Source of the DNA: Mustelus asterias
Lineage: Eukaryota
NCBI RefSeq assembly: GCF_964213995.1
Contig: NC_135804.1
Span: 58,962,001-59,026,000, forward strand
Length of the DNA: 64,000 nt
Direction of reading: 5' to 3'
The notes beneath the pieces were generated by a model. It saw only the letters and a list, made by a program, of their open reading frames with translations. It was not told where the DNA came from and did not search any database. Below are positions 13,698 to 47,966 of this stretch, piece by piece (position 1 is the first letter of the stretch; every line of letters begins with the position of its first letter). The position numbers and the translations under genes are program-made.

Positions 13698-16600
13698 GAG
13701 GTGATCTTACCGAAAAAAATCTAAGTGGCAAATGAGCGTAAGAACAAGAGAAATTCACGCCATTTTTTGGGCAAGTTAAATTTGTAATCTTACCTCACGC
13801 TATCAAAAATAATGAAGCCAAACCTCTTCTTCCCCATCAGAGGGTGAGGGTGGAGCCTAATCTCGTCGAAGGCGATGGAGAGCAGCAGAGGGCGCAATTG
13901 AGCATGCTCAGATCTCTATGCCCTGTGAACACAGAGATCTGTCATTCACTGCCTCCGCTAGCTATTGTTGGCCTACATGGCTGATTCCACACCCGCCACC
14001 CAGCCCCCACCCCCGCTACAGAGAGGTTGCTTGGCCAATTCCCCTCCTGTGCCAACTGATTGCCGCCCTCCCCCGACCGACCGTCACCACCTCCCGCATG
14101 AGCCGTCTAGTCCCCCCTACCCCCCTGCGTGGGCCTATCGTAGGACTCCACGGTCAACCTCCCCCGCTCCCCCCCCAGCCCCCACACACATGAACCGGCC
14201 AATCGCCGGCTGGAAAGCAGCAAGTGTGTCCCCCGTGATCGCTGTTGCCCTCTTTTTAGGTCAAACCAAATAAACAAACTCAGATTAAGTCAGGACAAAG
14301 TAAAAGGGGCAGCTCCCCAAAAAGGAGGGGGAACAGCCCGAACAGAAATCAAAGTACAAAGGAAACTTAAAAACATCAAATTAAAATGTGATTATTAGGG
14401 TTGATAACGCACCCCAACCCCTGTGGTGCCCAGCGGGCGCAGAAGGCGTCAACCGCGCCAGTGGACACCGCATGCTCCCTCTCCAGGGACACCTGGCCGC
14501 GAATGTAGCCGCGGTAGAGGGGCAGACAGTCAGGATGGACGGCCCCCTCGATCGCCCGCTGCCTGGACCGGTAAATGGCGCGTTTTGCCAGACCCAGGAG
14601 CAGGTTCACGAGGAGGTCGCCATCCCTCCCCTTCCTTCTCCGCACCGGGTGTCCGCAGATCAGGAGCATGGGACTGAAGTGCAAACAAAACATCAATAAA
14701 AGGTTCTTTAGGAAAACATAAAGGGAGTGCAGCCTCAGAAACACAACATAGACATGGTCCACGGACTCCACAAGGCCGCAGAAAGGGCAGTCTTCGGAGC
14801 CCGTGAACCAGTGAATCCTACGGTTGTGCGGAACTGCTGCATGCATCACCCTCCACCCCAGGTCCCCGACGTAATTGGGGGAGATCCCTCCGTAGAGGGA
14901 CCTCCAGCGGGGACCTCCGCCGCCCGGCGGCAACAAGGCCCGCCAAGGTGTACCCAGGCGATAGGCGAGGAGGCGGTAGTGGAAGGTGTGCAGCAGCAGC
15001 CCGCACAGGAAACGCCTCCGCGCGGCTGAAAAAGGCACGGAGGACATTTCCGCGAGACGGCTCAGGCTGTGGGGCACCTCACCCGAGGAGGGGGGTTGAG
15101 GTTTTGGGCCAATGTGGAATTCCGTCCGAACAGGGGAACACTCGGCCGGGATCCCACCGCACGCCTGCGCCGCCTCGAGTTTGCGTGCAGTTTCAGGGCC
15201 GAGCACGACCGTCCTAAGGTCTAGGATGGCTTTGGCCGCGCGCCGGACGGTCGTCCCCGCGCACTCAGCCAGCACGCGGGGACTCATCCAGCCCGCCCCT
15301 CCGCCATCGAGCACGTCCCCGATTCTGGTCACCCCGGCGTCCACAGCCCTCCTCTCCGCCAGCCACCTGAAGTCATACGGCTGGAGGAGTGGATTCCTGA
15401 GCAGCGGCTCTCGCACGAGAGCTGCTACTCCTGACAGGGGGGAGCTGCATCGCGAGGCGACCGTGTTCCAGACAGTGAGGAGGTCCTGGTAAAAGGCGGG
15501 CAACTCCTGCAGGGCGGTCGAAGCACGCCCCAGTTCGATATGCAGGAGCTGCACGTCATAATTGAGGTCGTGCCACTGGCGGAAGAAATACGTCACCATG
15601 GCACACCATTGTGGAGGGGGCTCAATGTAAAGGTACCTCTGCAGGGCCTGGAGGCGAAGGTCGCTATCTGAGTGCGGAGGCACACCAGACCTTGTCCGTC
15701 CTCCTCAAGCGGGAGATGCAGAACCGCAGCAGGGACCCAGTGCAGTCGATTGTCCCAGAAGAACCGCAGGAGGGTTTTCTGGATATCGGCAACAAAGCCA
15801 GGGGGAGGGGTCAAAGGGACCAGTCGGTACCACAGCATGGAGGCGACCAGCTGGTTTATGACGCGAACTCGCACCTCGTAGGACAGCACTCGGAGCAGTC
15901 CTGTCCAGCGATTCAGGCAGGCGGAGACTTTGGCCTCCAGCTCCCGCCAGTTCGCCGGCCAGGACTCTTCGGCTGGGCAGAGATGGGCCCCCAAGTAGAC
16001 AAGGTTGGTCCTGCTCCAGGTGAAAGGCCTGAGCTCCTCCGGAAGGGGGTCCGTCTCCCAAGGACCGACAAGGAGTCCGGAGCACTTGGCCCAGTTGATC
16101 CTGGCGGAGGACGTGGTGGAGTACACCGCCTGGCATTCTCGCATCCTCCACAGGTCAGCCGGGTCCGTGAACATGAGGAGCACGTCATCGGCGTAAGCTG
16201 ACAGGACCACCCCTACGTCCGGTCCGCGCAGGGCCAAACCCGACAACCTCCTCCGCAAGAGGCGCAGGAATGGCTCCACGCATACGGAATACAGTTGGCT
16301 GGACAAGGGGCAGCCCTGCCGTACTCCTCTCCCAAAGCGAAGGGGCGCCGTCAGGGACCCGTTAACCTTAATTAGACACTCTGCGGCAGAGTACAGTAAT
16401 CGGATCCGGGCGACAAAATGCGTCCCGAACCCGAATGCCCGCAGAGTCCCAAGTAAATACTCGTGCTTCACCCTGTCGAACGCCTTCTCCTGATCTAATG
16501 ACAAGAAGGCGCCCGACAGACCAGCCCTCTGGGAATGGTGGATTAGGTCCCGGACCAGGTGGAGGTTATCGTGTATGCAACGGCCCGGGACCGTGTAGGA

Positions 16601-17898
16601 CTGGTCAGGGTGGATCATGTGGTCCAGCACGGATCCAAGGTGTGAAGCCATAGCCTTGGCAAAGATTTTATAATCCGTGCTGAGGAGGGAGACCGGGCAC
16701 CAGTTCTTTAGGAGGTGGAGATTCCCCTTCTTGGGCAGCAGGGCAATGACGGCCCTGCGCCACGAAAGGGGCATCTCCCTGGTAGCGACGCTCTCCCCCA
16801 GGACCCCCGTGTAGTCGCTCCCCAGGACGTCCCAGAACGCCCTGAAGAACTCTACTGTCAGCCCGTCCAGCCCCGGGGCCTTGCCCCGGCTGAGGCCATT
16901 GAGGGCGCCGGTCAGCTCGTCCATGGTGGTAGGGGCCTCAAGCATGCCGACGCCCTCCGGGCTGACCTGCGGCAGATCCTCCCACACCGTGATCGCTGTT
17001 GCACAACAGGAGAACGTCTCCACCACCGATTGCTGCTGAAAAATGGCAGCGTGTCCCTCCGTCCCCCAGTTGCAGCTACAGAGCTGAAGCGTGTCTCTCC
17101 CATCGATCGCTGTTGCAGAGCGGCAGCGTGTCTCCCGTCTGATCGCTGTTGCAGAGCGCGTAGTATTTGTCTCTTTGACAGCCCATCCCAAATTATTCCT
17201 GCAATACTTTACAAGCACACTGTCCAGCGCACCTTTAAAAAATCCAAATGAAAGGCTCATCGATACCACCAATTTAAAAAAAGGCAGAAGGGGAAGGCAG
17301 AGGGGAGGCCGAGGGTGGGAAAGCTGGAACTCCACATTAGAGACTGGAATGCAGAGGGAGGGGATGTCCGCAGATGAACATCCCCCTCTCAGGCCTTGCC
17401 CCTCCCATAGGTCCTGCCCCCTCAGGCCCCTTGGCACTGCCTGGAGCCCGATGGGTTCTGCCAGTGTGGCAGTCTGGCAGTGCGGCATGCCTGGTGGGCA
17501 GTGCCAGTGTGCCAGGCTAGCTGTGCAAGGCTGGCTCTGCCCAAGGGGCAGCCCCCCAGTGGGATATCAATGGTCTTCGGTCCTACAGGTGAGGCCCTCA
17601 CAACTAGACTCCATTGATGGGGACCATACGTGATCCTCACAAGACCGCAGAGGTAAATGAGCCAGACGATTCCGTGCTGGGCTCACTTATAACATTTAAA
17701 TTCTATGTTGCATTGAATTTAGATATTACAATCAGCCTCCTGCCCTTTTCAGGCACAAGGCTGATCTTGTCCAATATCCACAACAGGTAAGATTGCGAGG
17801 TGCAAGGAATTGGACGTGAACCTGATGTCTCAGCTCTCTTCGATCTGAGTGCCTTGCCTCATTCATTGGCTGGTGAGATGCAATAGTAAGATTATGAC
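13698..17898. mobile_element. Harbinger-type non-autonomous element interrupted by a Tx1 LINE
   Basis: Ends gtgatcttacc and gtaagattatgac are roughly inverted. Subterminal tctaagtg and GC-rich body resemble 55818-56814. Boundaries approximate. Confidence 0.6.
14249..16986 (-). mobile_element. 5'-truncated Tx1-clade non-LTR retrotransposon (RT and C-terminal domain, one frameshift)
   Basis: KAPGLDGL, LDQEKAFDRV, GVRQGCPLS, AYADDV and CPFC...H motifs. 16-bp TSD ccgtgatcgctgttgc at 14233-14248 and 16987-17002. Confidence 0.92.
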
Positions 17899-21822: not shown

Positions 21823-23384
21823 AACTCTATTTAAAACAACGAATGAAACGTTTATTAAAACAGGAAAATAAATTATATTACCCGAAATAAAAGGTTGGAA
21901 AAATTTCAATATAAATATCAGAAAAAGATTCAACCTCGCATCATTTCTTTTAGCTAGCAATGCCCTTACAGATATATTGTACACCACAGATCCTAACTTA
22001 AACATAGCTGGGCTCCAAATTTCTCGTACCTCCAATTGTATCATTAGAAGTTCATTTATAAAAAATATTCGCAGTAAACTGATTTTACCGTTTTCCTTTC
22101 AGGAGAAAAAGGAGGCAGATATTGACCTTGTGACATTACGAAATGTCTGATAACAAGATAGCACACCCGATCTGCAGCAATGAGACGGGATATAAGAGTA
22201 GACTCGCGATTTTACAGGTACGACACGTTAACTTTAAAAAAAATCAATTCAAGTACGATGGACGTTCTATTAAAGGAATATTTTGAAGTTCGGCTACAAA
22301 CTCCTGCACAAAGGAACGACCGTGTCTCGATAAAAATCAAAATGATAATAGTTGTGATAGAGTCAGTGAAGGCGAGCATTATAATTATTATATCTGGATA
22401 CCTGGTAATACAGAAAATATAATGTTTAGATCTTGACTTCGTGCGATAGTGTAAGGTGAATGACAGTGAGTTAGCAACACGTTTTATATTCCTCCTCAAA
22501 TTTTATTCCCATTGAACTATACTCCCAATCCCGTTGAAATAAAACTTCGGAGAGATGTAAAAGGTGCTGCGAGTTCTCTATCACGCTATTGCACAACGTC
22601 CAAACATCAAGGTTTGAGAGCCATACCCCGCAGAGAAAACCGATTTCGCAATTTTCTTGTGGTAATTTTCATCACAGTTTGTCATGTTCCGGACAGTTGT
22701 TTCCTGTGTGACCTACGAAAGAAGCATAACATTCGACACTAGCAGTGGATTGAAATATCGATTAGTTCCATTAATTATTGCAAGCTCCTAACCCCCACCA
22801 ATTTACCCATCCTCTTCCAAATTTGCTGATAAGCTTCCCTTCCAAGTCCGCACTCTGATATCTCACCCAACAGAGCAATTTTGAATGATAAGTCTAAACG
22901 GTAAGAGATATAAATTCATCCTGGGCGATGGTGCAACGCTCACGATAGCGAAGTGTTTTTGAATTTCGCCCGATTTGCTTTTCCACTTTCAATGAAAAAG
23001 AGTCAATCCGACGGAGTTTAAAACGAGCCACCGATTTGTTTATATCCCGAAACTTGATACTGTGCAAAACTAATTTCTATCTCTGAGTGTGAGCCGGGTT
23101 TTGCTCTCAGGTGGAAGGAACATCAATGCCTAACACTAGCCTGAACTCCACACATGAAGAGGAGTCACCAACTATTTAAGCAAGGTGTTTGACGCGGCTG
23201 ATTTCACCCTAACTGGATAAGAAAAATTAATGGGATCCTACTGCCCTACCCGCTGATCTTTTAGCATAGCCCAAGTATGGAATGTAAGACCTCGCCACTT
23301 TCCGCATACAACATTTGACAACAAGGCTATCAGTTATTGTGTTTTTTAAAACAAGAAACACCAAACACCTTGAGCACCAAAATC

Positions 23385-23735
23385 AAAGCTGATGCTCCAG
23401 TGCATCGCTGAGTGTGTACCGTACTGTCGGAGCTGATGTCTTTAAAGATGAGATATTAAACCGAGGTGGAAGAAATTGTTCAGAAGAGCACGATTTAGAA
23501 GAGCAGGACATCAATCTCTGGTGTCCTGGCTAATATTTAACCCTCCGTCTAAATCAGGAAAACAGACCCCCTGGCCATTATCATGTTGTTGTTTGTGGGG
23601 ATTCGCTATGGGCAAGTTGGCTGCCGTGTTTCCTATATTGCAACAGAGACTACTTTTCAAAATTACTTCATTAGCTGTAAAAGGCTTTCAGATTTTAAGT
23701 GATCATTAAAGGTGGTGCATAGATGCATTTTTTTC
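23385..23735 (+). mobile_element. Ancient Deu-domain-type SINE (SacSINE1/AmnSINE1-like); related remnants near 1740-1965, 2490-2680, 7960-8130 and 50320-50510
   Basis: gatgagatattaaaccgagg...ttggctgccgtgtttccta...gctgtaaa motifs recognised from memory of the family. Confidence 0.6.
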
Positions 23736-24487
23736 ATTTTGAATTTGTTTTGAAACAAATAATTGGCTCCAAAACGAACTCTCCTTTAATTACTGGGATA
23801 ATTTACCTCTGTTGTATCTGATAAAATCTTAAATGGTTTATTTTAAAGCACATATAGAATTATTTGAAAATCGGTGCAGGGGTAGACTATTCGGTCCATC
23901 GAGCTGTTCCGCCTTTATTAAGATAAAGGTGATTTGATTGTGGCCTTAGCTCCACTTTTCTGCCACCCACCCATCTCCCCACCACCCCAACCCGTCATAA
24001 CTTTTGACTCCCTTTTCATCAAAAATCTGTTTAACTCAGCCTTGAACATATTCAATGACCCAACCTCCGCTGGTTTCTGGGGAAGAGAGTTACAAAGACC
24101 AAAGTCCCTCTGAGTAAGACATTCCTCCTTATCTCCGCCTGAAAAAGGACACTTCTTTTAAAACTGTTCCCCCTATTTCTCCAGAACATAGATATCCTCC
24201 AAATATATTTACATCGTTGCTAACCAAGGCTAACCAGAGGAGTTCGTTGCCTTTTGCGAGGCATTGTTAGCCTGGAGATATAGTCGAGGGAGCTCTATAC
24301 TGGCTATTGTCCCGGGATAATATTCTATTACTTTCAATCTGCAAACTTTGGCCCAAATATTCACCTTCAAAGAACATTAATTTTCACTGCCTTTGGATTG
24401 ATGCGGAGTTATTTGCTGACTTACACCAGTGTTTTCTTTGCAAAACGACAATGCCTTCTGGTAATAATGGTGTATCTCACCTTTCAC

Positions 24488-25056
24488 CAGTGCCGGATTT
24501 AGACTTGGTGAGGCCCTAAGCTATATAAAGCTTGGAGGCCCCTTGTTAAAAAGTTACACCAAAAGATCTCACAATGTTGCGTACCAAAACAGGACCTTGC
24601 GTCGCCACAAAAAAATTGAAAACATAATTATGCCTTTTAATTATTTAATAGCAAGGTATTTAAAGTGAAAAATACAAATTATTTTCAAATGAATGCATTT
24701 ACTGATTATATATTTATCATTTGGCTGGCTTGATCTCTCTCATAGATTATAATATAGTATACCCTGGAAACAATACTTAAAGGTAATTAAAATAATTTTA
24801 AGATACATTAATATATATGCAAAATGCTGACAAAAGAAGTAATCAGGATCACTTTTATTAATATAAGTAATAATGAAAACTGTCAACTTTTGGTAATTTT
24901 TTGAGTTGCTCTTCAAGCTGGTGCTTTCTTTTTCTTTTCTGGTATCCGCTCTTAAATGTTCTCTTCATTGTAAACCTTCCGAAATTTTGTGAGGCCCCTG
25001 CGGATTGTGAGGCCCTAAGCTGTAGCTTGTTTAGCTTATGCCTAAATCCGGCACTG
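24488..25056. mobile_element. hAT-type non-autonomous DNA transposon (MITE)
   Basis: 15-bp TIR cagtgccggatttag / ctaaatccggcactg. 8-bp TSD cctttcac (24480-24487) and cctttgac (25057-25064). AT-rich non-coding interior with repeated tgaggccc motifs. Confidence 0.88.
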
Positions 25057-25172
25057 CCTTTGACAGTACCTCAGTTTAAAATAATTCCCAACGATGACCA
25101 CGAGCGCCATTATTATCAATAAAACCGCTAAATGTCGACACAGCAACAAGAAATTTGTGACTTCAGCAGCAC
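25042..25172 (-). CDS. IgSF VJ-C1 receptor, exon 4 (TM with Arg; read-through into MITE gives tail KLRYCQRQCRI-stop)
   Basis: cttttgcag acceptor in phase 1 gives GAAEVTNFLLLCRHLAVLLIIMALVVIVGNYFKLRYCQ. The ancestral exon end is at 25058. The TAG at 25044-25042 lies inside the MITE TIR. Confidence 0.8.
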
Positions 25173-25450: not shown

Positions 25451-25750
25451 CTTCCAAGTTATAATTGACTTTAGCTGGAGTTTGAAGAGAAACATGAGAC
25501 ACTTGGCAGCTGTATGTCGCTCTGCTGCGGGTTGGCGCCATATCTTTGAGAGTGCTGAAAACTTCATACGTCCCCACCGTGGTTCGCTCTTTGGTAGTAT
25601 TGATCCCAGTTTCAATTTTTGCGTCGTCCTTATACCAAGTCACATTGAGATCTCCAGGGTAAAACTTAGTTGTTTTACACAGGAGAATCGGGGGAGTAGA
25701 TGGACGGATTTTGGACTCAACCAAGCTGATTGTCAGAGGAATGGGCCGAA
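25451..25750 (-). CDS. IgSF VJ-C1 receptor, exon 3 (C1-set domain)
   Basis: ttcctcccaag acceptor and G|gtaccg donor, 300 nt, phase 1-1. C1 hallmarks LLCKTTKFYPGDLNVTW and YSCQVSHVSL. Confidence 0.92.
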
Positions 25751-26959: not shown

Positions 26960-27065
26960 ACACAAACAGAAAATGCTGGAAAATCTCAGCAGGCCTGACA
27001 GTATCTGTGGAGAGAGAATAGAGCCAACGTTTCGAGTCAGGATAACCCTTCGTCAGAGCTCTGAC
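26960..27065 (-). mobile_element. Short Penelope terminus in the V-C1 intron
   Basis: The minus strand reads CTGACGAagggttatcctgactcGAAAcg, a hammerhead-like core. Confidence 0.7.
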
Positions 27066-27396: not shown

Positions 27397-27711
27397 CGAA
27401 CACACGGAGCTCCGAGCCAGTTCCATTCCCAATCATTTTTCCCCCACAGTACACGGAGCAGTAATAGCGGCCAGAATCTTTGAAACTCACATTCACAAGA
27501 TGGAGGACGGCCCTCCCTTTTTTCAAAAGCTTATATTGTCTGTTGTTCGATTCCCCATCGTCCGAAAACTCGTCCTCATCATGTCGCCACCAGTGAACCA
27601 TGACGTCTGATTCCTCTTGGAAGAATGGGAGTGTGCAATAGAAAGTAATGTTTGTTCCGCTGAGAGCAACTTTGAGTGGCGGGATTTGGCCGATTGTGGA
27701 ATTCCCAACAA
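27397..27711 (-). CDS. IgSF VJ-C1 receptor, exon 2 (V-set domain with J-like GNGTGSELRV)
   Basis: ttctgatag acceptor and G|gtgagt donor, 315 nt, phase 1-1. Contains B-strand Cys (TFYC), C-strand Trp (VHWW), DSGRYYC and a GxG J-like G strand within one exon. Confidence 0.92.
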
Positions 27712-27877
27712 CTATCAGAAAGCAATATAAACACAAAAAAATAAACATCTCATTGTACAGATAAAGATAGAAACGAAATTAAAAAGAACAATAAAGAACC
27801 ATAAATGGAGATAAATCAATTGATCAAATATCACTATACAAATATTTGTTCTCTCTGTCTACTAAATATTAAGGTAC

Positions 27878-27917
27878 CTGTGTATGCAATCCCCAGGATC
27901 AGTATACATGGAAGCAT
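27878..27917 (-). CDS. IgSF VJ-C1 receptor, exon 1 (signal peptide MLPCILILGIAYT)
   Basis: ATG at 27917, 13 mostly hydrophobic codons plus 1 nt, then CAG|gtacc donor. Phase 1 joins in frame to the V exon. TATAAAA lies about 70 bp upstream. Confidence 0.8.
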
Positions 27918-27982
27918 GTCAGACAATGGAAGATGAATGGATGTAAGCAAGCAAAGAACATCAGGTAGCTCGGACTGAGTGA

Positions 27983-28047
27983 TTTTATAAAAGGCCAGAG
28001 GAGAAATATGTCAGAGGCTGATGACATCACGTGCAAGTGATGTGGTT
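27983..28047 (-). promoter_or_regulatory. Putative proximal promoter of the IgSF receptor
   Basis: TATAAAA (minus strand, 27983-27989), CRE-like TGACATCA (28022-28029) overlapping E-box CACGTG (28028-28033), and RUNX site TGTGGTT (28041-28047). Confidence 0.55.
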
Positions 28048-28123
28048 TGAGTAAACCCATATCTTTCTTCAGATCAGATTTATAAAGACGCTTCTTGTGA
28101 CAATGGCCGTGTAAATCGCGGTG

Positions 28124-29271: not shown

Positions 29272-30246
29272 GGGGGGAATTTTACCATTTTGAGTCTAAG
29301 TGCCGAATCCGGGTGTCAAATAGATCTGTGTCTGGAATCCACTTTCCAGCGCGCCCATACGCGTTTTGCCGGCTCCGGTCCAATTTGCGCTGTGGGCGGG
29401 GCTTAGCGCTGGCGGGCCGATCAGAGCTCTGAGCTGCGCATGCGCAGTTCGAAAAAAATCTGACAGAGCGTGCCCGGGTGCGAAAGAAAGAAGAAGCAGA
29501 AAGCGGAGAGAGCGGCTCTCTGACGGTCATCCACTGGTTGGGGGGGAGGGGGTGTGGCCGATCATCCCCTGGGGGGCGGGAAGGAGAGGGGGTGTGACAT
29601 CTTATCCTCTGGGAGGGGGTGGTGGGTGGGAGGGGAGGGGGTATGACGTCTCATCCTCTGGGGGGGGGGGGAAGGAGTGGGGTTGTGACGTATCATCCTC
29701 TGGTCAGGGGGGTTCCGCTGCCAGTCTGCGGCCGATCCCTCCTGCCGGAGTGGACGTGCGGCCATGCCATCCCACAAAACCTTCAAGGATGAAGCGATTC
29801 CTCGCTAAGAAGATGAAGCAGAACCGGCCAATTCCACAGTGGATCCGCATGAAAACTGGCTACAAGATCAGTACAAGTCCAAGAGGAGACACTGGAGAAG
29901 GACCAAGCTGGGCCTGTAAAGGGATACACCATCACGGGTACACTACCAGCCACAGATTACTCTTCCCTGCAGGGGCAAGAGAGTGGGAGAGATGGCTGTG
30001 GCTGGTAGTGTACCAGTGATGGTGTATCCCTTTACAGGGGTAGAGTTGGGCGCGCGGTTCATTCAGTTGATTTAAATGTATGCAAATGCCCGATTAGGGC
30101 GCGGGCCGGACCTGCGCCCGAATCGGGTGTCGGTAAAGCCGTGATCTGCTCGGATTCGGGTGCAGATCACGTTAAAGGCCCGATGCCCAACTTTACCATG
30201 ATTTCGCGCCCGAAAACGGGTGCGAAGTTTTGGTAAAATCAGGCCC
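29272..30246. mobile_element. Harbinger-type non-autonomous element containing the RPL39 copy
   Basis: Imperfect 16-bp TIR ggggggaattttacca / tggtaaaatcaggccc, 3-bp TSD ata, and subterminal tctaagtg shared with other Harbinger-type elements in the window. Confidence 0.75.
29764..29919 (+). pseudogene. RPL39: Intronless RPL39 (60S ribosomal protein L39) copy with two frameshifts
   Basis: MPSHKTF / [26 protein letters not shown] / [18 protein letters not shown], with a +1 and a -1 indel and no introns. Confidence 0.93.
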
Positions 30247-31619
30247 ATAATGTTGCACCTAGTTAAAGATGACTTTCATCCATTTTTTATGTCTTTCTTT
30301 AGCTATTATCATTTTAATACATGTCCGGTGCATGATGGATCCTCTTCATATTTTAATATTTGTCAGAAAGTTGGAAGTCACTATTGTGTACTAGGAAGGA
30401 TAGCATCCTTAAAAGGTTTCACCCTTGGTCAACATAATAAGAATACTAGATATAGGAGCAAGAGTAGGCCCTAAGGTCCTTCGTATCTGCTTTATCACTC
30501 AAGAATATGATGGTTATCATTCTACATTCAGCTCCACACTCCTGCTCCATCATCATATCCTTAGATTTTGTTAAGCACTGAAGGAATCCATCAAGCTTAG
30601 TCTTGAATATACTCAATGACTGAACCTTCTGGGGTAGAGAATTCAAAAGATGAAGAATTTTATCTCCATTTCCATCTGGTGCCTGAGCTGACATGATGGT
30701 GTTGTAACCTAGTACAGAAAAAGGCACCCAAACAGGATGCGATCGTTAAAGATTTATTAATCACATGAAAAGCAAACTGAAACATATAAATTGGATGGTG
30801 CTGATGCTTCCTTTACTTACGTCACTTGGCCAATGTTATAATTAGTATGGAAAGAAATCACATGATTGGCATGTCTACCATATTGGTGAGGCCATCAAGC
30901 AAGAATATTTTCTCAGTATTATGATATAATTGAGGGCACCATGACATCATTAAATATTGTTCTGATTGATCTGTCTTCAGATACATTCGGATATGTTCAG
31001 TAATCCTGTGCTCCTAGTACACAGCTCTCGAGTGGAGTTCATGTTGGATATAGTTTAACTGCAAGATTATTCAGTTCATGCTCCCTTTGAGTATGACTCT
31101 CTGCTAGGAGCAGTATCACTCAATTTCCCCTACAGTTAAATTATAGTAAAGCTTAGTAGGAGTACTATTTTTAAAGTAATTTGCATTTTGAGCATAAACA
31201 AATATTTGATAGTCTTTACAATAATCAGTTTTATTGCTGACCTTGAGTGAGTTTTTCCTTTTGATGGGTTGTTCCAGTGACGTTAATAAAGGCAGTGCCC
31301 AAAGATCAAACAGTAAGGAGCACAACATCACCTCAAGTTGAGGTTACCTTGAGCTCGATTATCCAGAAAGTAACACCACAGATTGGGAGTGCTGCTTTTC
31401 TACCTGAAGCGGGGTTTCCTGCAGCTCGGAGGCTTTAGGTAGTTGAGGTCAGATTTGAATCAGCTGAGGCTTCACCATTAACCAATGGGATAGACGCTCC
31501 TTGACTATGTTTACACCTCAAGAGTTATTGCTGGCACCCATAGGCAGCATTTTACGAGGGAAGGAGGAATGGAAAATAGAGATAAAAAGGATAAGATTTC
31601 TAAGTTTATATTTGTTTTT

Positions 31620-32120
31620 TAAATTTTTTCATGGGATGTGGGCATCGTTGGCTAGGCCAGCATTTCTTGCCCTTCCCTAATTGCCCTTAGGCTCAGTGGT
31701 TTGCAAGGCCTTTAAGAGTCAACCACGTTGCTGTGGGTCTGGAGTCACATGTAGGCCAGTTCACAGAATCATAGAATCCTTCCAGTACAGAGGGAGGCCA
31801 TTTGGCCCATTGAGCCTGCACCGACAACAATCCCACTCACACCCTATCCCCATAATCCCACCAGTTAATTAATATTTACCCAGTTAATCCCCCTGATATT
31901 AAGGGGCAATTTAGCATGGTCAATCAACCTAACCTGCACATCTTTGGAGTGTGGGAGGAAATCCACGCAGACATGGGAAGAACTTACAAACTCCACACAG
32001 ACAGTCACCAGAGGCCGGAATTGAACTTGAATCCCTGGGTCTGTGAGGCAGAAATATTAATCACTGTGCCACCCCAGGTAAGGGTGCAGATTTCTTCCCC
32101 TAAAGAACACTAGTGAACCA
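31620..32120 (-). mobile_element. Second-family SINE with nested HE1-type SINE (about 31765-32075)
   Basis: ggagtcacatgtaggccag is interrupted by an HE1-like copy and resumes at ggtaaggg...gatttcttccctaa. Confidence 0.75.
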
Positions 32121-32687
32121 GAAGGCAACAGTGATCAGTTTTTAGTTTTATACTTGAGATTTCATTCTTGATTTAAGTTGTGCCAATTACTGTGATGGTA
32201 TTTAAATTTTGTTAAACCTAATTGCTGTAGAATAGTGGATGAGAAAGTTCAGTAAGGTTCAAAATAACCTGTAAACTCCCTCAAGCCAGTGAAACAGCTG
32301 TCAGGAGAAGTTTGCGGTTTTCCATGGTTAACTCATTTGCAGAATTGAGTATTCATTGGCACAGATGCCATGACATAAATACAATTGGCTGCAATAGATG
32401 AAATTAGGAATGACAACCTTCATAAAAGATACTTCAACCTACATTCTTACCTTTTTGTCCTTCATGCTGGAAGTAAGGAGCAGTGCATGGTGCAGCGACT
32501 GACTGTCAGACAACTTCACTACATGTCTACCTTTGTCTCCAGTAGGTCCTTCTGGATTAAGCACCACACCAGCCTTCAAGCCCCCCTGGAGCAAATTGAG
32601 TTAAAGAGGCACAGACAGCTTTTACTAGAAAGATGGGCAGGCATATCATTTGTACCACGGGAAGTACAACCAAACATTCATAATGCT

Positions 32688-35600
32688 GGGCAGAATTTTA
32701 TGAGAATTTTTCTAAGTGTCCAGCTAGCTTGAAAATGGGAGCATTCCTGAACCGTTTTTTGGGTGAGTTTTCACACCCAATCTTATGCACTCGGTCTTTG
32801 AAAAAGTGGGCTAGACCGCATCTAGCCACTAGAGGCAGTGGGCAGGGCTTATTTCACCAGACAGCCTGCGCTCAGGTTGGAGCCACAAACTGCGTATGCA
32901 CAGAAAAAGCAAAAAAATAATGCAGCTCTCCTGGCACAACATCCCCAGGCCAGATACAACCTCCTCCTCCCCATCATGGACGTTGGGGACCACCCCCCCA
33001 ATGTTATTGACCCCCTTACCCCTCCAATCCCTGCTGGACCCCCTTGCACGTGATCCCTCATCACCCCACTCAGCCCCGATGGCTGACTGTCATGACCCCC
33101 TCTCTCCCCTACCCCGATCATCAGAGCCACAAATCCCACATCCCCCCTCCCACCTCCATGAACACATCTGCAAGTGCAGACTTGGTTTCCCTTCCATGGT
33201 AACAAGGCAAACTGCATTAAACTCACTGGAATGCTCCAACGGGTGCATGACTTTCCCAAACTGCCTGCAGCTGATCTGCCCTAAAAAGGGAAAGCTCCAT
33301 TAAAAATCCCCCAAGAATGAGCAGACAGTGCAGGAAGAAATGGCCTCCAGGAAGACAGCTCCCCATTTTTCTGAAGCAAATCTGGCCGGGTTGCTGGAGG
33401 CGGTGGAGGCTAGGTGGCATACCCTCTTCCTCCCCAGCAGGACACTGTTCCAAGTAAATGGAGTGGAAACGCAGCCTGGGATGTGATGGCAGCCAGCGTT
33501 AGTGCGAGGGCACTGGCCAGGAGAACTGGGAAGCAATTCCACAAAAAACTGAATGACCTAATCCAGGCAGCAAGGGTGGGTGTTTAACCTCATCCAACAT
33601 CTTCCCGCCAAAAATGACCCCAGACCACCCACACCCAGCATGCTTCCAGCCCCTGACTATCCCCAAGCACCTTCCTCCTCCCTCCCAAGAGTATCACAAC
33701 CCTTGTCCTATGAATGCCATCCTCCGATACCCTGCAGGACTCATGCCATCAGATTTTACATGGCTCCTTCTGTCCTCTCAGGAGAAGAATGCCCATAATC
33801 GCCAGGAGAGGGTGATGTGCCCAAGATTCAGCCCTCACCTCCTTTGAGAAGCAGGCACTGGAGCTTATGGGAGAGGAGGGAATGCGGACCATTAGTGACC
33901 CTTGCTGCCACCAGTCCTCCAGCACCTGGGTGGTGTCGTCATCCTCCTCTTGCCGCGTGGTCTCCTCCCCAATGATACCTAGCTGGTCGGCCTCCACATC
34001 TTCCACCTCCAAAAGGTCTCCTTGTTGCTGTGCCAGATTGTGTAGGGCACAGCACATGACCACAATGCAGGATGATATTAGGGGGGTTATATTGGAGGGC
34101 CCCACCAGAGCAGTCCATGCACATGAATTGCATTTTGAGGAGCCCTGTGCACCGCTCCACTATTGAACAGTGGGTCTCATTATATTGAGTCTCCTCATCA
34201 GTCTCAGGCCTCCGCACTGGAATCAGCCAAGTCCAAAGTGGGTACCCATGTCCCCCATGAGCCATCCCTGCACCCTGGGTTCCTCCTCAAAGACCTCTGG
34301 GACATCAGAACTCCTCAATATAAAACTGTCATGCACGCTGCCAGGGTGTCTGGCACAGACGTGCATGATGTTCAGCTGATGGTCACACACCAACTGTACA
34401 TTTCAATAATTCTATTCATGAATCTTCCTGGATTTTTCACCAGGGCCTTGAGGGCGATGTGGGTGCAGCCATCCCCCTGCACATTTGGCATCCTCGCGAT
34501 GGCCACGGACCCTGCAGGACCTGGTCAAATTTAATGTACTGGCCAGCCCGGGTATACAGGGCATCCATAACCTCCTTCACACACTTGTGGGTGGATGATT
34601 GGGAAATGCCACAAAGGTCTCCACTGGCGGTCTGAAAAGACCTGGTGGTGTAAAAGTTTAAGGCCATTCACAGCCACCAGAAGTGGGTGTTTCGAAAATA
34701 GCACAGGTGTCGCACTGTCTCAAAGCCTCAGTGGCACGTGATGGGCACTTGTGTGTGAAACTGCCATGGTCTCCATTCCCTCCTTCTCCTGCCTCTGCCC
34801 CTCCTCCCCCCTCCAGGATAAATGGCGGCCACCTCCTGCAGCTATCTCCCTCTACTGCAAGTGGTAAGGCCTGGGACTCCTGTGCCTGCAATTCATCCTC
34901 ATGCTCCTTCTCAGCTCCAGCAACATCCAAAAGAACAGAAAGATCAATGGGTTGCGCTGCAAAAACCATCTCAATCTGAAGAGTGGAGCAGGGGGCTGGG
35001 ATTTGGGGAAGGGGGGAGACAGATGGAGAGGTTGAAGAACTCTGCTTGCCCCAGCCCAGCGACACATATTCCCCATACCCCCCACAGACCCCAAACAACA
35101 CAGGCTCCCCGTACACCTCTGCAGCCCCCCAGGAAAGCAACAAAACTCCCCCCCACCAATCACAAGCACACACCCAGAACCCATGCAGCAGTGGCCACAG
35201 ACAGTGCTGCTTGACAAGTCCTGAGGCTGCAGCAATGCCACTTCAGAGAGTTTCCAGCCCATCCCCCACTAGCAAGTGTTTGCTGCTGCCACCACTAGGA
35301 CCCAGAGTCTGCGCGAAGACCCGAGATCAGTACTCTGACCTGGGTCCATCCTGAGAAGCCGAAGTTGGAGCCCCCACACACTCGTGGGCCCCCCAATCCA
35401 AAATGCAACATGGCTGCCATGAAACAACTCCCCGAAGCAGCACCGAGCAGTTTAAAAGCAGAGACTTACCTCCTCACTCACCCTCTGCTCAAGCACCTGA
35501 ATGCGACTTTTATACTTGGTGTTTGCCTGTCCAACCCAGCTGCGGTGAACGAGGTTGTAAAGGCAGGTGAGCAGGGACGATTGGGCATGAAGCTCACTAA

Positions 35601-35785
35601 ATGCATTGCTATGAATGCAAAAAAAATGCAAATTGACATTTCAACTGTTTTGGGCGGGGTCCTGATTGCGCCAATTTTTTCTTCTTGGTAAAATAGGAAT
35701 GGGCAGGGAAACAGGCACCATTCCCAACTTTTTGATTTTTTTCCCCTCTGCAAAACGGGCACGATGAGGTTGTAAAATTCTGCCC
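32688..35785. mobile_element. Degenerate PIF/Harbinger transposon (HARBI1-like transposase on minus, Myb/SANT gene on plus)
   Basis: TIR gggcagaatttta / taaaattctgccc. Minus-strand fragments ALNFYTTRSFQTASGDLCGISQSSTHKCVKEV, GHGYPL, IVERCTGLLK and CCALHNLA. Plus-strand Myb/SANT-like APHFSEANLAGLLEAVEAR...KKLNDL near 33340-33575. Many frameshifts. Confidence 0.88.
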
Positions 35786-36564
35786 ACTGAATCAGAATCT
35801 TTCACTGCAGCTACCCAGTCATGCAAACATTAATTCGTTTCACAGTTTCAAGTCATTTGTAACATCTTCCAGCAGCAATGAAAACCATCAAATCGCCATT
35901 AACGCTATTTTTCTCTCTCCACAACTCCTCAGGTACTGGAGAAATTTGTGTCTGCAATCAGGAAGACCTGAACAACATCCAGGCTTAGGCTTTTGGCAAG
36001 TGGCTATACAAGTGCCAGGCATTGGCCATTAAAGGAGCATTGAATTGAACAAAGAAAAATATAAGCATGAGTACAAACACTTAGAAGTTTAGATAGTGAA
36101 ACGTTGCATCCTAACAAAAGTTAAAATACAGTTGTCAGCAAAACTCAAGGAACTGTTTGAAGGTTTCTGTTTTTTAAAAAGTTGCTCAGTGAATTTGATT
36201 AAAACAAACTGCTTTAGGAAGGAGGAAAGGTAGAGTTAAAATCATAATATTAAATATAACAATGTAGATATATCAAGACTAGGTGAATGGATCTTTTGTC
36301 TCTGTTGCTTGTATTTAAACAAGTCAAAAATGAAGAGATTTTCTTCTCATCAGTCTGGCTGGATTCATACCCAGGTCTGTAAGGAAAGAATCAATCAGGT
36401 TGCTTTGAAGTCTTCAAATGTTACAAATCACAAGGCGGTCTCGCTTTATCCTTCTTACATGTATTTTTAATATATAGATGTAGTGAATCCTAAACTATTT
36501 AACTACAACTGACCTTAATACAGTAGTCAGTTTAAAAGCAGAGAGTTTTGTTTAATTGACATTA

Positions 36565-37042
36565 AGGGGTTCACTAGATTGATTCCGGAGATGAGAGGTT
36601 TGTCGTATGAAGAGAGATTGAACAGTTTAGGCCTATACTCTCTGGCATTTAGAAGAATGAGGGGAGATCAAATTGAGGTATACATGATGATAAAAGGCAT
36701 GGATAAAGTAGATGTGGAGCAATGTTTCCGCTGGTGAGGCATTCTAGCATGAGAGGTCATAATCTAAGGATAAGGGGTAGCAAATGTAAAACAGAGTTGA
36801 GGAGAAACTATTTCTCCCAAAGGGTTGTGGAACTGTGGAATTCACAACCCCAAAGTGCAGTGGATTCTGGGACAGTGAGTAAATTTAAGGAGGAGTTAGA
36901 TAGATTTTTAAATTGGTAATGGGTTGAAAGATTATGGGGAGAAGGCAGAAAAATGGGGGATGAGGAGCATATCAACTATGATTGAATGGCGGAGCGGATT
37001 CGATGGGTCAAATGGCCTAACTCTGCTCCTATATCTTATGAA
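36565..37042 (+). mobile_element. CR1 3' fragment
   Basis: RGHNLRIRG...RNYFSQRVVELWNS plus 3' UTR. Confidence 0.85.
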
Positions 37043-38310
37043 CATTAAATTCAGTAGAATGAACTAGATCTTTTATCATAATTAGGAGATTAAATTGTAT
37101 ATTGATTTATAATTATGTTTAACTTTGTAGATTTTTAAAATGGTTAGAACTCAATCATGGAGCAACAGAAAAGTTCCTTTTTTTGGAAGACCTTGAATTA
37201 AAAAAAACAAAAATCTGGAAGTTGGGAGTATAACAAGTTAAAATACATGGATCTCTGGCTATAAGTCCAGGACAATCAAACCCGTGTGAATCACTATGTA
37301 ATGCACATTCAAAACATGCAAAAGTTGACGAATAAGGAAGTGGTTGCTCTGTCTAAAAGTTCATTTTTATCATAAGTGCGGCTCTCTAGTTCACGCTTAA
37401 TTATGGAGAATCATAATCATTAATATTCATTACTAAATGAATCAGTGACTTCTGATATTTATATTCTATTATTACTACTATTCTGAAGAGAAAGTGATAA
37501 GAACATTAATCTTTTATTAGGACCTAGAGGTGCGAATAGTTACTGACTGTGATCTAACATACTGGCTAACCTCTGGTGTAACTTCTTTATTAGTCAATTT
37601 AAACAGGATTTGATGAACAGCTGCTGATTTGCCATTAAAAAAGCTGATATTGCTCACAACACTGGATTAAAGTTTATTACGTTTTGCTCATCATTTTATT
37701 TCTGTAACACAAGAACATATATTTAAAAAAAACAGAAGCAGGAGTAGACCACATGGCCCATCTAGCCTGCTCTGCCATTCAATACAATCACAACTAATTT
37801 TGGGCTTCAACTGCATTCTATAACCCACTCCTCGTATCCCCCTTAATTCCCTGAGACACCAAAAATCTGTCTATCCCAGTCTAAAATGCATTCAACCACA
37901 CCCACAACCCTTTTGGATGGAGAATTCCAAAGATTCCCAACACTTTGAAGAAATTTCTTTTAGTCTCAATCCTAAGTGATTGGCTCCTCATTTTGGGGTG
38001 GTGCAGTACTCAACTAAATCCAAATCAGAATGACTGGTGTGACAGGAAGCTAATTGTTAGGTAATGAGCAGTGTGACAGGAAGTTACTGGTTAGGTATTT
38101 TCGTATCCCTGCTGAAATAAATAACATGCCACTGAAAAAAAGTCAGTATCATTAAAAGTTGTTTGCAAATCATAGATTTGAATTTACAGCACAGAAGGAT
38201 ATCATTTAACCTGAAGGGTTGTCCAATTTAGTCCTACACCCCAGTTTTCTCTTAATTACTTGGCAGATTAGTCCTTTTCAAGGATGTGGTTAATTGCCAT
38301 TTAAAGTTTT

Positions 38311-39025
38311 AGACGCAAAAGCCCAGTCTGCAGGTACAACAGGTGATCAAGAAGGCAAATGGGATGTTGGCCTATATTGCGAAGGGGATAGAATATAAAA
38401 GCAGGGATGTCTTGATGCACCTGTACAGGGCATTGGTGAGGCCGCAGCTGGAATACTGTGTGCAGTATTGGTCCCCTTATATGAGGAAGGATATATTGGC
38501 ATTGGAGGGAGTGCAGAGAAGGTTCACCAGGTTGATACCGGAGATGAGGGGTTTGGATTATGAGGAGAGGCTGAGGAGATTGGGTTTGTACTCGTTGGAG
38601 TTTAGAAGGATGAGGGGGGATCTTATGGAGACTTATAAGATAATGCGGGGGCTGGATAGGGTGGAGGCGGAGAGATTCTTTCCACTTAGTAAGGAAGTTA
38701 AAACTAGAGGACACAGCCTCAAAATAAAGGGGGGTCGGTTTAAGACAGAGTTGAGGAGGAACTTCTTCTCCCAGAGGGTGGTGAATCTCTGGAATTCTCT
38801 GCCCACTGAGGTGGTGGAGGCTACCTCGCTGAATATGTTTAAAGCGCGGATGGATGGATTCCTGATCGGTAAGGGAATTAAGGGTTATGGGGATCAGGCG
38901 GGTAAGTGGTACTGATCCACGTCAGATCAGCCATGATCTTATTGAATGGCGGGGCAGGCTCGAGGGGCTAGATGGCCTACTCCTGCTCCTATTTCTTATG
39001 TTCTTATGTTCTTTCTTATGTTCTT
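38311..39025 (+). mobile_element. Young CR1 3' fragment
   Basis: Open 190-aa ORF2 C-terminus and (ttcttatg)n tail. Close relative of 57241-57990. Confidence 0.92.
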
Positions 39026-39032
39026 AAAGTTA

Positions 39033-39325
39033 GGATAGCACGGTGGCACAGTCTTTAGCACTGTTGTCTCACAGCGCCAAGGACCCAGTTTTGATTCCTG
39101 GCTTGGGTCACTGTGTGCGGATACTGGACATTCTCTGCATGGGTTTCTTCCGCATGCTCCGATTTCTATCCACAGTCTGATATATGTGCTGGCTAGGTGC
39201 ACTGGCAATGCTAAATTCTCCCTCAGTGTACCTGAACAGGCGCCAGAGCATGGCGACTAGGGGATTTTCACAGTATCTTCAATGCAGTGTTAATGCAAGC
39301 CTACTTGTGACACTAATAAAGAAAA
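39033..39325 (+). mobile_element. V-SINE with alternative tail
   Basis: tRNA head, V-domain and gtgacactaataaa tail. Confidence 0.78.
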
Positions 39326-39379
39326 TTATAGAATCTTGATTCCACCACCTTTTAGGTAACACATTGCAGGTGTTAAAAG

Positions 39380-42300
39380 AATCATACAGTGCAGAAGAGG
39401 CCCTTCAGCCCATCGAGTCTGCATAGACATGCAAGAACCACCTCCTTCTGCACTGTAGGAATTCTATGATAAGATTATGAGGGGCATGGACAGAGTGATA
39501 GCGGGCAGCTGTTCCCCTTAGGGTTAGTCATGAGGGCCTTTCAGCCCATCAAGTCTGCACTGACAAGAACCACCTAAACTACCTAACGCTAATCCCATTT
39601 ACCAGCACTTGGCTTTGAATGTTATGATGTGCCAAGTGCTCATCCAGGTACTTTTTAAAGGATGTGAGGCAACCTGCATCCACCACCTTCCCAGGCAGCA
39701 TATTCCAGATTATCACCACCCTTTGGCTAAAAAACAACTTTTCTTCATATCCCCCCTAAACCTCGAACTGGTCTCCCCTCGTGACTGACTCTTGAAATAG
39801 CTGCTCCCTATCCCTCTGTCCATGTCCCTCATAATCTTATCATAGAATTCCTACAGTGCAAAAGGCCATTCAAACCATTGAGCATGCACCGACAACAATC
39901 CCATCCAGACCCGACCCCCGTAATCCCACATATTTATCCTGTTAATCCCCCTGACACTACAGGGCAATTTAGCATAGCTAATCAACGTAACCCACACAAC
40001 ATTTGGCTGAGAGAGGAAAACAGAGCACCCAGAGGAAACCCACGTGGACAGGGGAGAACTCCACACAGACATTCACCCGAGGCCGAACTCTGGTCTCTGG
40101 TGCTGTGAAGCAGCAGTGCTAATCACTGTGCCACTCCAAATAAAAAGATTCAGACTTCTTGTACTCCTTGATCAGGTCACTTCTCAGTCTTCCCTGCTCC
40201 ACCGAAAACAACCCAAGTCTATCCAACCTCACTTCATAAATGTTCTATCCAAAGCAGCACCCTGGTGAATACCCTCTGCACCTCATCCAGTGCAATCACA
40301 CCCTCCCCACATTGTGGCGACCAGAACTGCACAGAGCACTCCAGCTGTGGCCTCATACAGCTCCAACATGATCACCTTGCTTTTGTAATCTATGTCTCAA
40401 TTGATAAAGGCATAGATATGTCTTTCTCACCACACAACTAACTTGTCCTTCTGAGAGCTATGGACAAACACACCAAGGTCCCTTTGTTCCTCAGAACACC
40501 CTAGTGTCATGCTGTTCATTAAATACTTCCATGTCAAATTACTCTCTCCAAAGTGTATCACTTCATGCTTTTCAGGGTTAAAGTCCATGTGCCACTTATC
40601 TGCCCATCTGTCTACATCTTCCTGTAGTCCAAGACACTGAATCGCACTGTTAACCACCTGGCCATCTTTGTGTCATCCACAGGCTTACTAATCCTATCCC
40701 CCACATAGTCATCTATCTCATTTATACAAATGATGACTAATAGGAGACCCATCACAGATCCCTGTGGCATGCCACTGGACACTGGCATCTAGTCACGAAA
40801 GCAGGCTTCTGTCTTCACGCTCTGTTTCCTACAACTAAGCCAATTTTGAATCCACCTCCTCAAAATTACTTTGCATCCCATGTGCATTTGTCTTCTTTAT
40901 AAGTCTTCTATGTGGGTCTTGTCAAAGGCTTTGCTGAAATCCATATCGACTACATCAACTGCACTACCCTCATCTACACCTGGTCACTTCAAAAAATTCA
41001 ATCAAACTTTTTAGGCAAGACCTCCCTCTGCCAAAGCCATGATGACTATTCCTGATCAAACCTTTCCTCACCAAGTGGAGATAGATTCTCTCCTTCAGGA
41101 TTTTCTCCAATAGTTTCCCTACAATTGACAAGAGACTCACTGGTCTGTAGTTCCCTGGCCTATCTCTACAACCCTTCTTCAATAGTAGAACAACATTAGC
41201 TATTCTCCAGTCCTCTGGCACCTCACCCACAGCTCAGAGGGGAATTAAATATTTGAGTCAGAGCCCCTGTAATCTCCTCCCACAGCAGCCTGGGACAACA
41301 TTCACCCAGAACTGAAGATTTGTACATTTTTAAGCCTGCCAACAACTCCAAAATCTTGTCACTCCCTATGTTAGTTTGCTCAAGAACCTTGCAGTCTCTC
41401 TCCTGGAGTCCCATACCGTCACCCTCATTCTCTTGCGTGAAGTCAAATGTGAAGTAGTATTTGTTCAACACTTTCCCAATGTCCTCTGGCTCCTCCTACA
41501 GATTGCCCCCTTGGTCCCCACTCTTTCCCTGGATATCCTCTTCCATTGATATATTTATAGAATATGTTGGGATATTCCCTACCTTTACCAGGCAGATTTT
41601 TCTCATATCCACTCTTTGCCTTGTTGAGCACCACCCTGCACTTTCTGTACTTCACTAATGCTTCCACTGATTTGCTCCCCTTGTACCTGCCAAAAGCCTC
41701 TTTTCCTTCTCATCATACCATGAATACCTCTGGTCATCCATGGTTCTCTGGGCTCATTACTCCTTCCATCATCCTAGAAGGAACATGTTAGGTTTGTGCC
41801 CTCCCCATTTCCTTTTTGAATGCCCTCCCACTGCTCTTCTGTAGATGCCCCTGCAAGTAGCTGTTTCCAATCTGCCTTGGCCCGATCCTACCTCTTCTTA
41901 CTAAACCCACTCTTCCCCCAATCCAAAATATTTACTGTTTTTACACACCTCTGTGAATTGTGCACATATTTGCTCCTCAATTTCTCGCTGCCAATCTGGG
42001 GGTCTATAATGAACACCTAGTAACGTGGCTGCCCCTTTTTTATTCTTATGCTCTACCCACAAAGCCTCTTTCGATGCCCCCTCCAAGTTATCATCTCTTC
42101 TTACTGCAGTAACTGATTCCTTAACTAATAATTCTCTTTTACCCCCTCCCCTAAATAGTCTATATCTTGGAATTTTGAGCTGCCAATACTGCCCTTCCCG
42201 GAACCACATCTACTACTAGATGTGATCGCTACTATAATACAATTCCACGTGTCAATCCTCACCCTTAAATCACCTGTAATACTCGTGACATTAAAGTAGA

Positions 42301-43150
42301 GGCCATTTAGCCTTGCCTTACTTCCTTGAAGCTTAATACAGTTCTACTCTCTCTGACTTGATTGTTTTACTGTATTATGCTGTTTCCCTATTCTGCTAAC
42401 AGTCTGTGTCCCCTCCCAATGCCAAATTAGATTAAACTCCTCCCAACAGCACTAACAAACCCACCGACAAGGATGTTAGTAATTGTGCTCTGGTTCAAAT
42501 GTAGACCATCTCATTTGTACAGGTCCCATCTTCTCCAGAAATGGTCCCAGTGATCGAGGAATCTAATACCCTCCCTCCTGCACCAACTCTTAAACCATGC
42601 ATTCATCTGTGCTATTCTCCTATTTTTGAGCTTGCTAGCATGTGCTACTCGGAGTAACCCAGAAATTACAACCCAACAAGTCCTGCTTTTTAGCCTACTA
42701 CCTAACTCCCGGTTTAAAAAAAACACAAGACTTCAGTCCTCTTTCTACCTGTATCATTGGCATCAACATGTACCATGACCTTAAGGGGACTCCTGAAATA
42801 CCTGGCTGTGTCTCTTGGATTGCCTGGTAGTCCCTCATTCCCTTCTTCCCTCAAGTCCTCCAGCTGCATTGTGACTACCTCCATAAACATGCTATTCATG
42901 ATGTTCTCAGACTCACAGATACTCAACAGTGTCCCCAGCCGATGTTCCTGCTCTGAAACCCAAGCTTCCAGGAGCTGTAGCTGGACACACTTCGTGCACA
43001 CATGTTGGTCCCAGGCACTGGAAATGTGCCCGACATCCCTCATAGAACAGAAGTAGCAGACCACAATTTTGAGCTCTCCTGCCTTAACTAAACCCTTCAT
43101 ATTTAGGGAACTTAAAACACAAAGTCCCGACCCTTGCTTAAACAATGACT
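39380..43150 (-). mobile_element. Long degenerate CR1 (ORF1 zinc finger/SGNH esterase and ORF2 remnants) with nested SINE
   Basis: CYFC...CTKC and VHVDAND motifs in ORF1, GVHYRPP endonuclease and NYRPVSL RT remnants in ORF2. Confidence 0.85.
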
Positions 43151-47300: not shown

Positions 47301-47411
47301 GAGCGACACGCCGAAAGCTTGTGCTATCAAATAAACCTGTTGGACTTTAACCTGGTGTCGTGAGGCTTCATACTGTGCCTACCCCAGTCCAATGCCGGCA
47401 TCACCACATCG
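44343..47411 (-). mobile_element. Penelope-like retroelement (RT plus GIY-YIG) with inverted terminal duplication
   Basis: MDVSALYTSIPH, GIAMGT, RYIDDIF and NIVYLICC...YIGET motifs. 46683-47375 is an inverted copy of about 44345-45027. TSD ttgttaat(a/c)gta at 44331-44342 and 47412-47423. Confidence 0.92.
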
Positions 47412-47632
47412 TTGTTAATCGTAGCAAAGGGCAAATAGGTGGCTGCAGTCTCGTTTGCGAACACTGGGGGTGCACCATCTCATCATTCCTGTGTCTTAGT
47501 GAGGAATGGCGCAGTTGCCATTGCAGTGATTATTCGTGATCTCCAACTCTGGCAGCACTGCCCCAGTCTGAACTTTAGGTGGTGCTAAAATAAAAGCAAA
47601 ATACTGCAAATGCTGGAATTCAGACAACATTT

Positions 47633-47966
47633 CATAGAAACCCTACAGTGCAGAAAGAGGCCATCTGGTCCATGGAGTCTGCACCGACCACAATCCCACC
47701 CAGGCCCTACCCCCATATCCCTACACATTTACCCGCTAATCCCTCTAACCTACGCATCTCAGGACACTAAGGCGCAATTTTATCAGGGCCAATCAACCTA
47801 ACCCACACATCTTTGGACTGTGGGAGGAAACCGGAGCACCCAGAGGAAACCCACGCAGACACGAGGAGAATGTGCAAACTCCACACAGACAGTGACCCAA
47901 GCTGGGAATCGAACCCAGATCCCTGGAGCTGTGAAGCAGCAGTGCTAACCACTGTGCTACCGTGCT
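47633..47966 (-). mobile_element. HE1-type SINE
   Basis: Near-identical to 94-432. Confidence 0.88.

Follow-up and report, generated by a model that had tools for sequence, protein, structure and literature searches.

The stretch of Mustelus asterias DNA analyzed here (64 kb, hereafter the window) carries on its minus strand a receptor gene whose leader, V-type immunoglobulin (Ig), C1-type Ig and transmembrane (TM) exons have canonical splice sites and phase-1 joins (Table 1). Leader, V and C1 exons form 218 codons without a stop, and Pfam matches and exon phases agree on a single V and a single C1 exon. The leader N-terminus is similar, as judged by eye, to that of the horn shark ortholog. 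On translation, the Arg at the start of the hydrophobic stretch is encoded by the host TM exon. No paralog of the gene was found within the 64-kb window. Upstream of the leader ATG, TATA-like and E-box/CRE-like motifs were noticed by eye at 27916-28060 (minus strand; consensus matches only). The V exon is extended by 12 residues upstream in horn shark isoform X1, and the window frame is open and similar over 27711-27766 (minus strand); an alternative V-exon acceptor may be common to the two genes.

Table 1. Features of the receptor gene and of the transposon at its TM exon (window coordinates)
Feature	Position	Strand	Basis
Leader exon, 40 nt, ends in phase 1	27878..27917	-	ATG; GT donor 7/9 consensus
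V-type Ig exon, 315 nt	27397..27711	-	Pfam V-set above cut-off; 78% identity to horn shark P0001
C1-type Ig exon, 300 nt	25451..25750	-	Pfam C1-set E 2e-13; 73% identity to P0001
TM exon to its likely ancestral end, 115 nt, phase 1 to phase 2	25058..25172	-	Translation; Arg-type relatives; phases
Cryptic donor GAG/GTACTG, phase 2, 12 nt upstream of old exon end (GT 25069-25068)	25064..25072	-	5/9 consensus
Target-site duplication, exon-side copy	25057..25064	-	7/8 identical to other copy
Nonautonomous DNA transposon (MITE), hAT-like, 569 bp	24488..25056	.	Inverted ends; depth; ends of other copies
Inverted end, 15 bp, reading QCRI-stop in the TM-exon frame	25042..25056	-	Translation
36-codon basic ORF inside element	24861..24968	-	Reading frame
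AATAAA in element, 183 nt after new stop; candidate poly(A) signal for read-through transcript	24854..24859	-	Hexamer match
Second inverted end, 15 bp	24488..24502	-	Perfect match to first
Target-site duplication, intron-side copy	24480..24487	-	7/8 identical to other copy
Displaced donor AAG/GTGAGA (GT 24480-24479)	24475..24483	-	8/9 consensus, top among the gene's donors
Likely terminal exon, acceptor 22712	22502..22712	-	Horn shark C-terminus; frames; AATAAA 22507-22502; absent from original prediction

Other elements and repeats were noticed elsewhere in the window. A GC-rich non-LTR retroelement with a Pfam RVT_1 reverse transcriptase, presumably Tx1-like, occupies 14376-17566 (minus strand), and a reverse transcriptase followed by a stretch that resembles a GIY-YIG nuclease by eye (no Pfam match) lies at 44716-46344 (minus strand), an element that we take to be Penelope-like. 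The segment at 33749-34286 (minus strand) holds a broken remnant of a Harbinger-type transposase (DDE_Tnp_4) that falls short of the Pfam cut-off. At about 29790-29900 (plus strand), an RPL39 sequence that is intronless and broken in frame matches Pfam Ribosomal_L39 over model positions 1-31 of 42 and is likely a processed pseudogene. In X3, a DNA-like sequence run, two very high-copy repeats stand out, one within the V-C1 intron (26960-27060, depth of about 2 million) and one between the transposon and the terminal exon (23350-24176).

The protein closest to the window gene is a horn shark (Heterodontus francisci) model named "tapasin-related protein-like" (P0001/P0002; XP_067906048.1), with 75% identity over 202 columns. 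In a quick tree of 61 rows, from which isoform duplicates, rows shorter than 170 residues and five rows of other architecture were excluded, this ortholog is the sister of the window gene with support 100. The next relatives reach at most 44% identity. Word-index searches among proteins of 117-373 and 123-392 aa returned only the horn shark gene above 45%, and the cluster search used for the family hides members closer than 50%. Both horn shark isoforms lack a TM exon, the C1 exon being joined directly to a downstream exon that contributes six residues before the model ends.

Beyond this pair, P0003-P0157 make up a large V-C1 receptor family of sharks and elephant shark that includes ITIM-type long tails, Arg-type short tails and TM-less models. 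All ten relatives that were looked up come from sharks or elephant shark, and family members carry several unrelated annotation names. Arg-type members are interspersed with ITIM-type members in the ectodomain tree, as in paired-receptor families, and the ITIM-type relatives of the window gene are about 44% identical to it. Matches to solved structures (SIRP-alpha, SIRP-gamma, B7-H6, antibody chains and UrIg2; E 1e-12 to 1e-21) are all distant and leave the family unfixed. The gene does not fit the SIRP family, which has a V-C1-C1 ectodomain, whereas the window gene has one V and one C1 exon only. The literature searched yielded no description of the V-C1 receptor family or of the transposon insertion in the text available; what could be seen of PMC12227049 deals with a different gene.

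The transposon is well delimited. Its inverted end matches twice in the window versus 0.09 times expected, and none of 100 shuffles reached two. Summed contig depth over the element in X3 is about 30,000-49,000 versus about 19-22 in the single-copy flanks, a roughly 2,000-fold excess that is one of depth rather than a copy number, and pieces of other copies begin at 24487/24488 or end at 25056. The element was also found in sequence runs of other organisms; four of five runs were compared, X4 being excluded because it derives from the same sample as X3. We estimate the number of copies to be on the order of a thousand or more, and an occasional hit on a splice donor is therefore to be expected. 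Such an insertion would presumably survive more easily in a redundant immune family.

Class assignment is hAT-like, as judged only by the 8-bp duplication and the length of the ends. The ends and the inner ORF look Tip100-like to us, and by resemblance the 36-codon ORF may be a remnant of a transposase N-terminus; it has no match in Pfam, in Atlas or among transposases. The only protein match among two candidates for this ORF is another copy of the element within a Mustelus gene model. In that model (P0158, M. asterias CDKN2B-like), the last approximately 45 residues come from a MITE copy read in another frame, open for about 65 codons from the inverted end, which may be a real exonization or an annotation artifact. 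hAT elements are described, in the part of PMC3942097 available, as having short TIRs of 10-25 bp and 8-bp TSDs. Like nonautonomous hAT MITEs, the window element has 15-bp ends, an 8-bp duplication (7/8, at one site), a length below 600 bp, a high copy number and no transposase domain; unlike them, it has no identified autonomous partner. The window copy differs from nearly all of the X3 depth at 8 of 569 positions, and one base of the duplication has changed. The shark rate given in the accessible portion of PMC10587355 does not yield an insertion date because subfamily differences are inseparable from changes that followed the insertion.

Each 8-bp flank of the element comprises seven exon bases and the first G of a donor. 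The duplication thus spans the exon/intron junction of the TM exon, as originally predicted, although the two flanks agree at seven of eight positions, a mismatch that had gone unmentioned. The coordinates also bear out that the donor GT now lies 577 bp from the old exon end, and translation confirms that the inverted end supplies QCRI-stop in the TM frame. Scored over nine positions against the general donor consensus, the displaced site reaches 8/9, whereas the other donors of the gene score 6, 7 and 7. The predicted cryptic donor is present as well, in phase 2 and 12 nt ahead of the old exon end, and offers a plausible rescue; at 5/9 it comes first among the 10 GT sites of the TM exon and ranks below all used donors of the gene. 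A GC donor at the inverted end was considered unlikely (5/9, with a poor intron side).

Whether the site restored by removing the element (CAAAG/gtgaga) was a working donor is less straightforward than the original prediction implied, because the TGA of the empty site is an in-frame stop with either copy of the duplication, a fact that had not been weighed. The sequence alone is therefore ambiguous on donor status, and support came from the relatives. The last exon residue of the window gene aligns immediately ahead of a column in which 30 of the 54 TM-bearing relatives have Gly. In horn shark P0003, this Gly is an exon junction, as shown by the TM-skipping isoform P0004; the TM exon of relatives such as P0003 is apparently phase 1-to-1, one base off from phase 2 in the window. 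The in-frame stop could mean that the GT at 24480 never served as a donor and that the TM exon was the last one and ended at TGA, with the 22712 exon used for the soluble form only and the element merely adding four residues and a poly(A) signal. The splicing of horn shark C1 straight to the downstream exon agrees with this, and so does the end of some Arg-type relatives 4-9 residues past the junction column. However, a phase-2 intron that starts with GTGA yields an in-frame TGA automatically, no poly(A) hexamer occurs in the single-copy 300 nt below the element (24479-24180), and the site is the gene's best donor match at a family exon boundary. We hold a terminal TM exon to be improbable.

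Another possibility is that the upstream GT at 25069 has always been the working donor, in which case the element would have inserted 12 nt inside the intron and been of no consequence. This GT is in phase 2 with the downstream exon and is of the AG/GTAC type, like two used donors of the gene. Nevertheless, the empty site holds a stronger donor 12 nt downstream, and the family boundary coincides in the alignment with the insertion point rather than with a position four residues before it, which makes constant use of the upstream GT highly improbable. We regard the displaced GT as a probable donor because it has the best consensus, lies at the family exon boundary, leads to a likely shared terminal exon and is followed by no poly(A) hexamer in 24479-24180. 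As far as these comparisons go, the element likely displaced a true phase-2 donor.

The shared terminal exon, which had not been part of the original prediction, was located through the horn shark C-terminus. Read after a phase-1 donor, the exon at acceptor 22712 gives HTGNNCPEHDKL-stop, identical at five of six positions to the last six residues of the horn shark model. Among 8,358 AG sites on both strands, this acceptor is the best match to that C-terminus and the only one at 5/6; 11 of the 14 bases ahead of it are pyrimidines. Given the C-terminal match and the AATAAA at 22507, the gene likely has a terminal exon 1.8 kb below the element. Joined to a phase-2 donor, this exon adds nine residues (SHRKQLSGT-stop), and the reading weakly resembles the first cytoplasmic exon of relatives, ranking 27th of 1,716 site-frame combinations, with phase 0 close to it at 51st, so that this comparison carries little weight. 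The receptor before the insertion can thus be pictured, on inference, as one in which the TM exon was joined in phase 2 to the 22712 exon, giving 266 aa and a 19-residue tail with no ITIM/ITAM.

Tail length in the family follows the charged residue. Of the 54 TM-bearing relatives, 12 carry Arg at the aligned position of the window Arg; their median length past the junction column is 25 residues, and at least two Tyr motifs occur in 1 of these 12; in the other 42, the median is 90.5 residues, and 23 have at least two such motifs. As far as PMC3533184 could be seen, this division between Arg-type short tails and long Tyr-motif tails is the textbook one that sets activating paired receptors apart from inhibitory ones. 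When 3,562 six-frame pieces of the window were searched with a profile built from 24 Tyr-motif tails, no Tyr-motif exon was found (best E 4.3), while in a control three of four left-out 25-aa Tyr-motif fragments outranked every window piece. The predicted tails have 19 residues before the insertion and 14 or 15 after it, and none holds an ITIM/ITAM. Most likely, judging from the host-encoded Arg, the mostly short tails of Arg-type relatives and this ancestral tail, the receptor was short-tailed before the element arrived. The claim that the transposon created a short-tailed, adaptor-coupled receptor is therefore unsupported.

In its strong form, that claim has a long-tailed receptor turned by the element into a short-tailed, adaptor-coupled one, or sees in the element a regulated means, kept by selection, of switching between tail isoforms. 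Long ITIM-like tails are indeed found in many family members, the element does supply an in-frame stop and an AATAAA, and it is present at both junctions in X3 and so may be common or fixed. But the downstream exon adds only nine residues and the window yielded no Tyr-motif exon, the Arg lies in the host exon and is common to short-tailed relatives, and QCRI is simply the unchanged inverted end, with no sign of selection on it. We judge conversion or a selected switch very unlikely. What stands of the original prediction is the displaced donor, with cryptic rescue as a plausible consequence.

Our preferred account is that the MITE at the 3' boundary of the TM exon moved the real donor 577 bp away in an Arg-anchored, activating receptor that likely was already short-tailed, an account that we hold with somewhat more belief than doubt. 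Transcripts would now be divided among three routes. Use of the cryptic donor is predicted to give 262 aa with a 15-residue tail, four juxtamembrane residues fewer than before, and this product is the likeliest membrane form. Read-through would give 261 aa and a 14-residue tail ending in QCRI, with polyadenylation inside the element. Skipping of the TM exon, an outcome that the original prediction did not include, would yield a soluble protein of 231 aa that, as in the horn shark model, ends in the terminal exon read in phase 1. A stop far ahead of a junction makes nonsense-mediated decay of the transcript likely. Use of the displaced donor would create a 692-nt exon with a stop 561 nt before the junction, and its transcript would likely be degraded. 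The signaling class would be unchanged in any of the predicted products. Among 148 human events that followed splice-site or donor loss, skipping occurred in 70 (47%), cryptic site use in 44 (30%) and intron retention in 29 (20%), and half of the variants gave two or more outcomes (PMC9925382, as far as available). In the portion of PMC8964760 at hand, 99% of the human cryptic donors that come into use when the normal donor is damaged are found no more than 250 nt away. At human rates, a mixture of products is most likely here because donor loss often has several outcomes and nearby cryptic donors are used.

A stronger departure from this mixture would be that the insertion effectively removed the membrane form, so that the main product today would be the soluble, TM-skipped one or the gene would be in decay. 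Besides skipping being the commonest outcome of donor loss in the available part of the human survey (PMC9925382), the skip product corresponds to the one form annotated in horn shark, and the window copy has drifted. Its branch in the quick tree is 0.27 versus 0.078 for horn shark, it keeps 28 of 32 highly conserved columns versus 30 of 32 in horn shark, and of 51 differing columns, 30 depart from family residues in the window gene versus 16 in horn shark (p 0.039). These figures are uncorrected for lineage rate, and the extra drift of this copy fits relaxed constraint or decay or merely a faster lineage. The window also differs from X3 at eight single-copy positions, and at 27553 the other letter in X3 changes an amino acid in the V domain. 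On the other side, the 218 leader-V-C1 codons are open, the splice sites are canonical, the Ig core, the TM exon and its Arg are intact, and an in-frame cryptic donor is at hand. Decay of the gene is possible, and loss of the membrane form as a whole is an unlikely but appreciable prospect. The soluble form itself probably predates the insertion because the horn shark models lack the TM exon and the split between the two lineages looks far older than the element.

How widespread the insertion is can be gauged in part from X3, whose contigs enter the two element ends by 27 and 26 letters at about single-copy depth, against a bridging rule of 31 letters. An empty-site joint does not appear among the 15 listed of 52 joints, contigs being able to show presence but not absence. 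The contig pieces listed for two runs guessed to be RNA cover repeats only. The junctions in X3 would agree with an insertion that is common or fixed; since X3 could itself be the source of the window, it is not counted as independent.

Activating paired receptors associate with an ITAM adaptor, and the window receptor may do so as well. Activating paired receptors such as LILRA and DCAR combine a TM Arg or Lys with a short tail, and soluble LILRA3 is known besides (PMC3533184, in the part available). The likeness to these receptors, so far as that source covers them, extends to the charged TM residue, the short ITIM-free tail, the existence of inhibitory relatives whose ectodomains are similar and the occurrence of a TM-less form; the difference is that the window gene has a V-C1 ectodomain and belongs to a cartilaginous-fish family in which its nearest inhibitory relatives are only about 44% identical. 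As regards clustering, the ortholog and paralogs in horn shark are on contigs of one and the same length, 99,651,266. Its domain order is the same as that of the chondrichthyan V-C1 genes annotated as tapasin-related-like, SIRP-alpha-like or NCR3LG1-like (XP_067906048.1 and others), although the horn shark models, unlike the window gene, have no TM exon. It would be a speculative step, one we think improbable, to propose that a single insertion, fixed on the TM donor, shifted an activating paired receptor toward a LILRA3-like secreted decoy and left a minor membrane form whose tail is encoded by the transposon. Functionally, little seems to be at stake because no ITIM/ITAM is predicted to have been gained or lost. 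The insertion is real, but as an instance of splicing disturbed by a transposon it is ordinary, with a few residues likely swapped or a push toward the secreted form. The V-C1 family with its ITIM-type, Arg-type and TM-less members may matter more than the insertion.

Established transposon-derived isoforms of immune receptors include IFNAR2-S, IL18R1-Short and soluble PD-L1, the last of which stems from an L2 element, and splice sites and poly(A) signals can also come from DNA transposons (PMC13709765, in the text available). In these isoforms, as that text presents them, a transposon likewise provides a stop, a splice change or a poly(A) signal near the TM exon of an immune receptor; they are due to intronic retroelements that remove a signaling domain and have been shown at the transcript level. 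By contrast, the window case involves a DNA element on the donor itself, entails no predicted loss of a signaling motif and is known from DNA alone. If the proposed displacement is true, the locus offers a clean natural test, in a shark, of how an intact donor moved by 577 bp is handled (cryptic rescue, read-through or skipping), and it would add a cartilaginous fish and a DNA element to the transposon-made immune-receptor isoforms, which are so far known mostly from retroelements of mammals.
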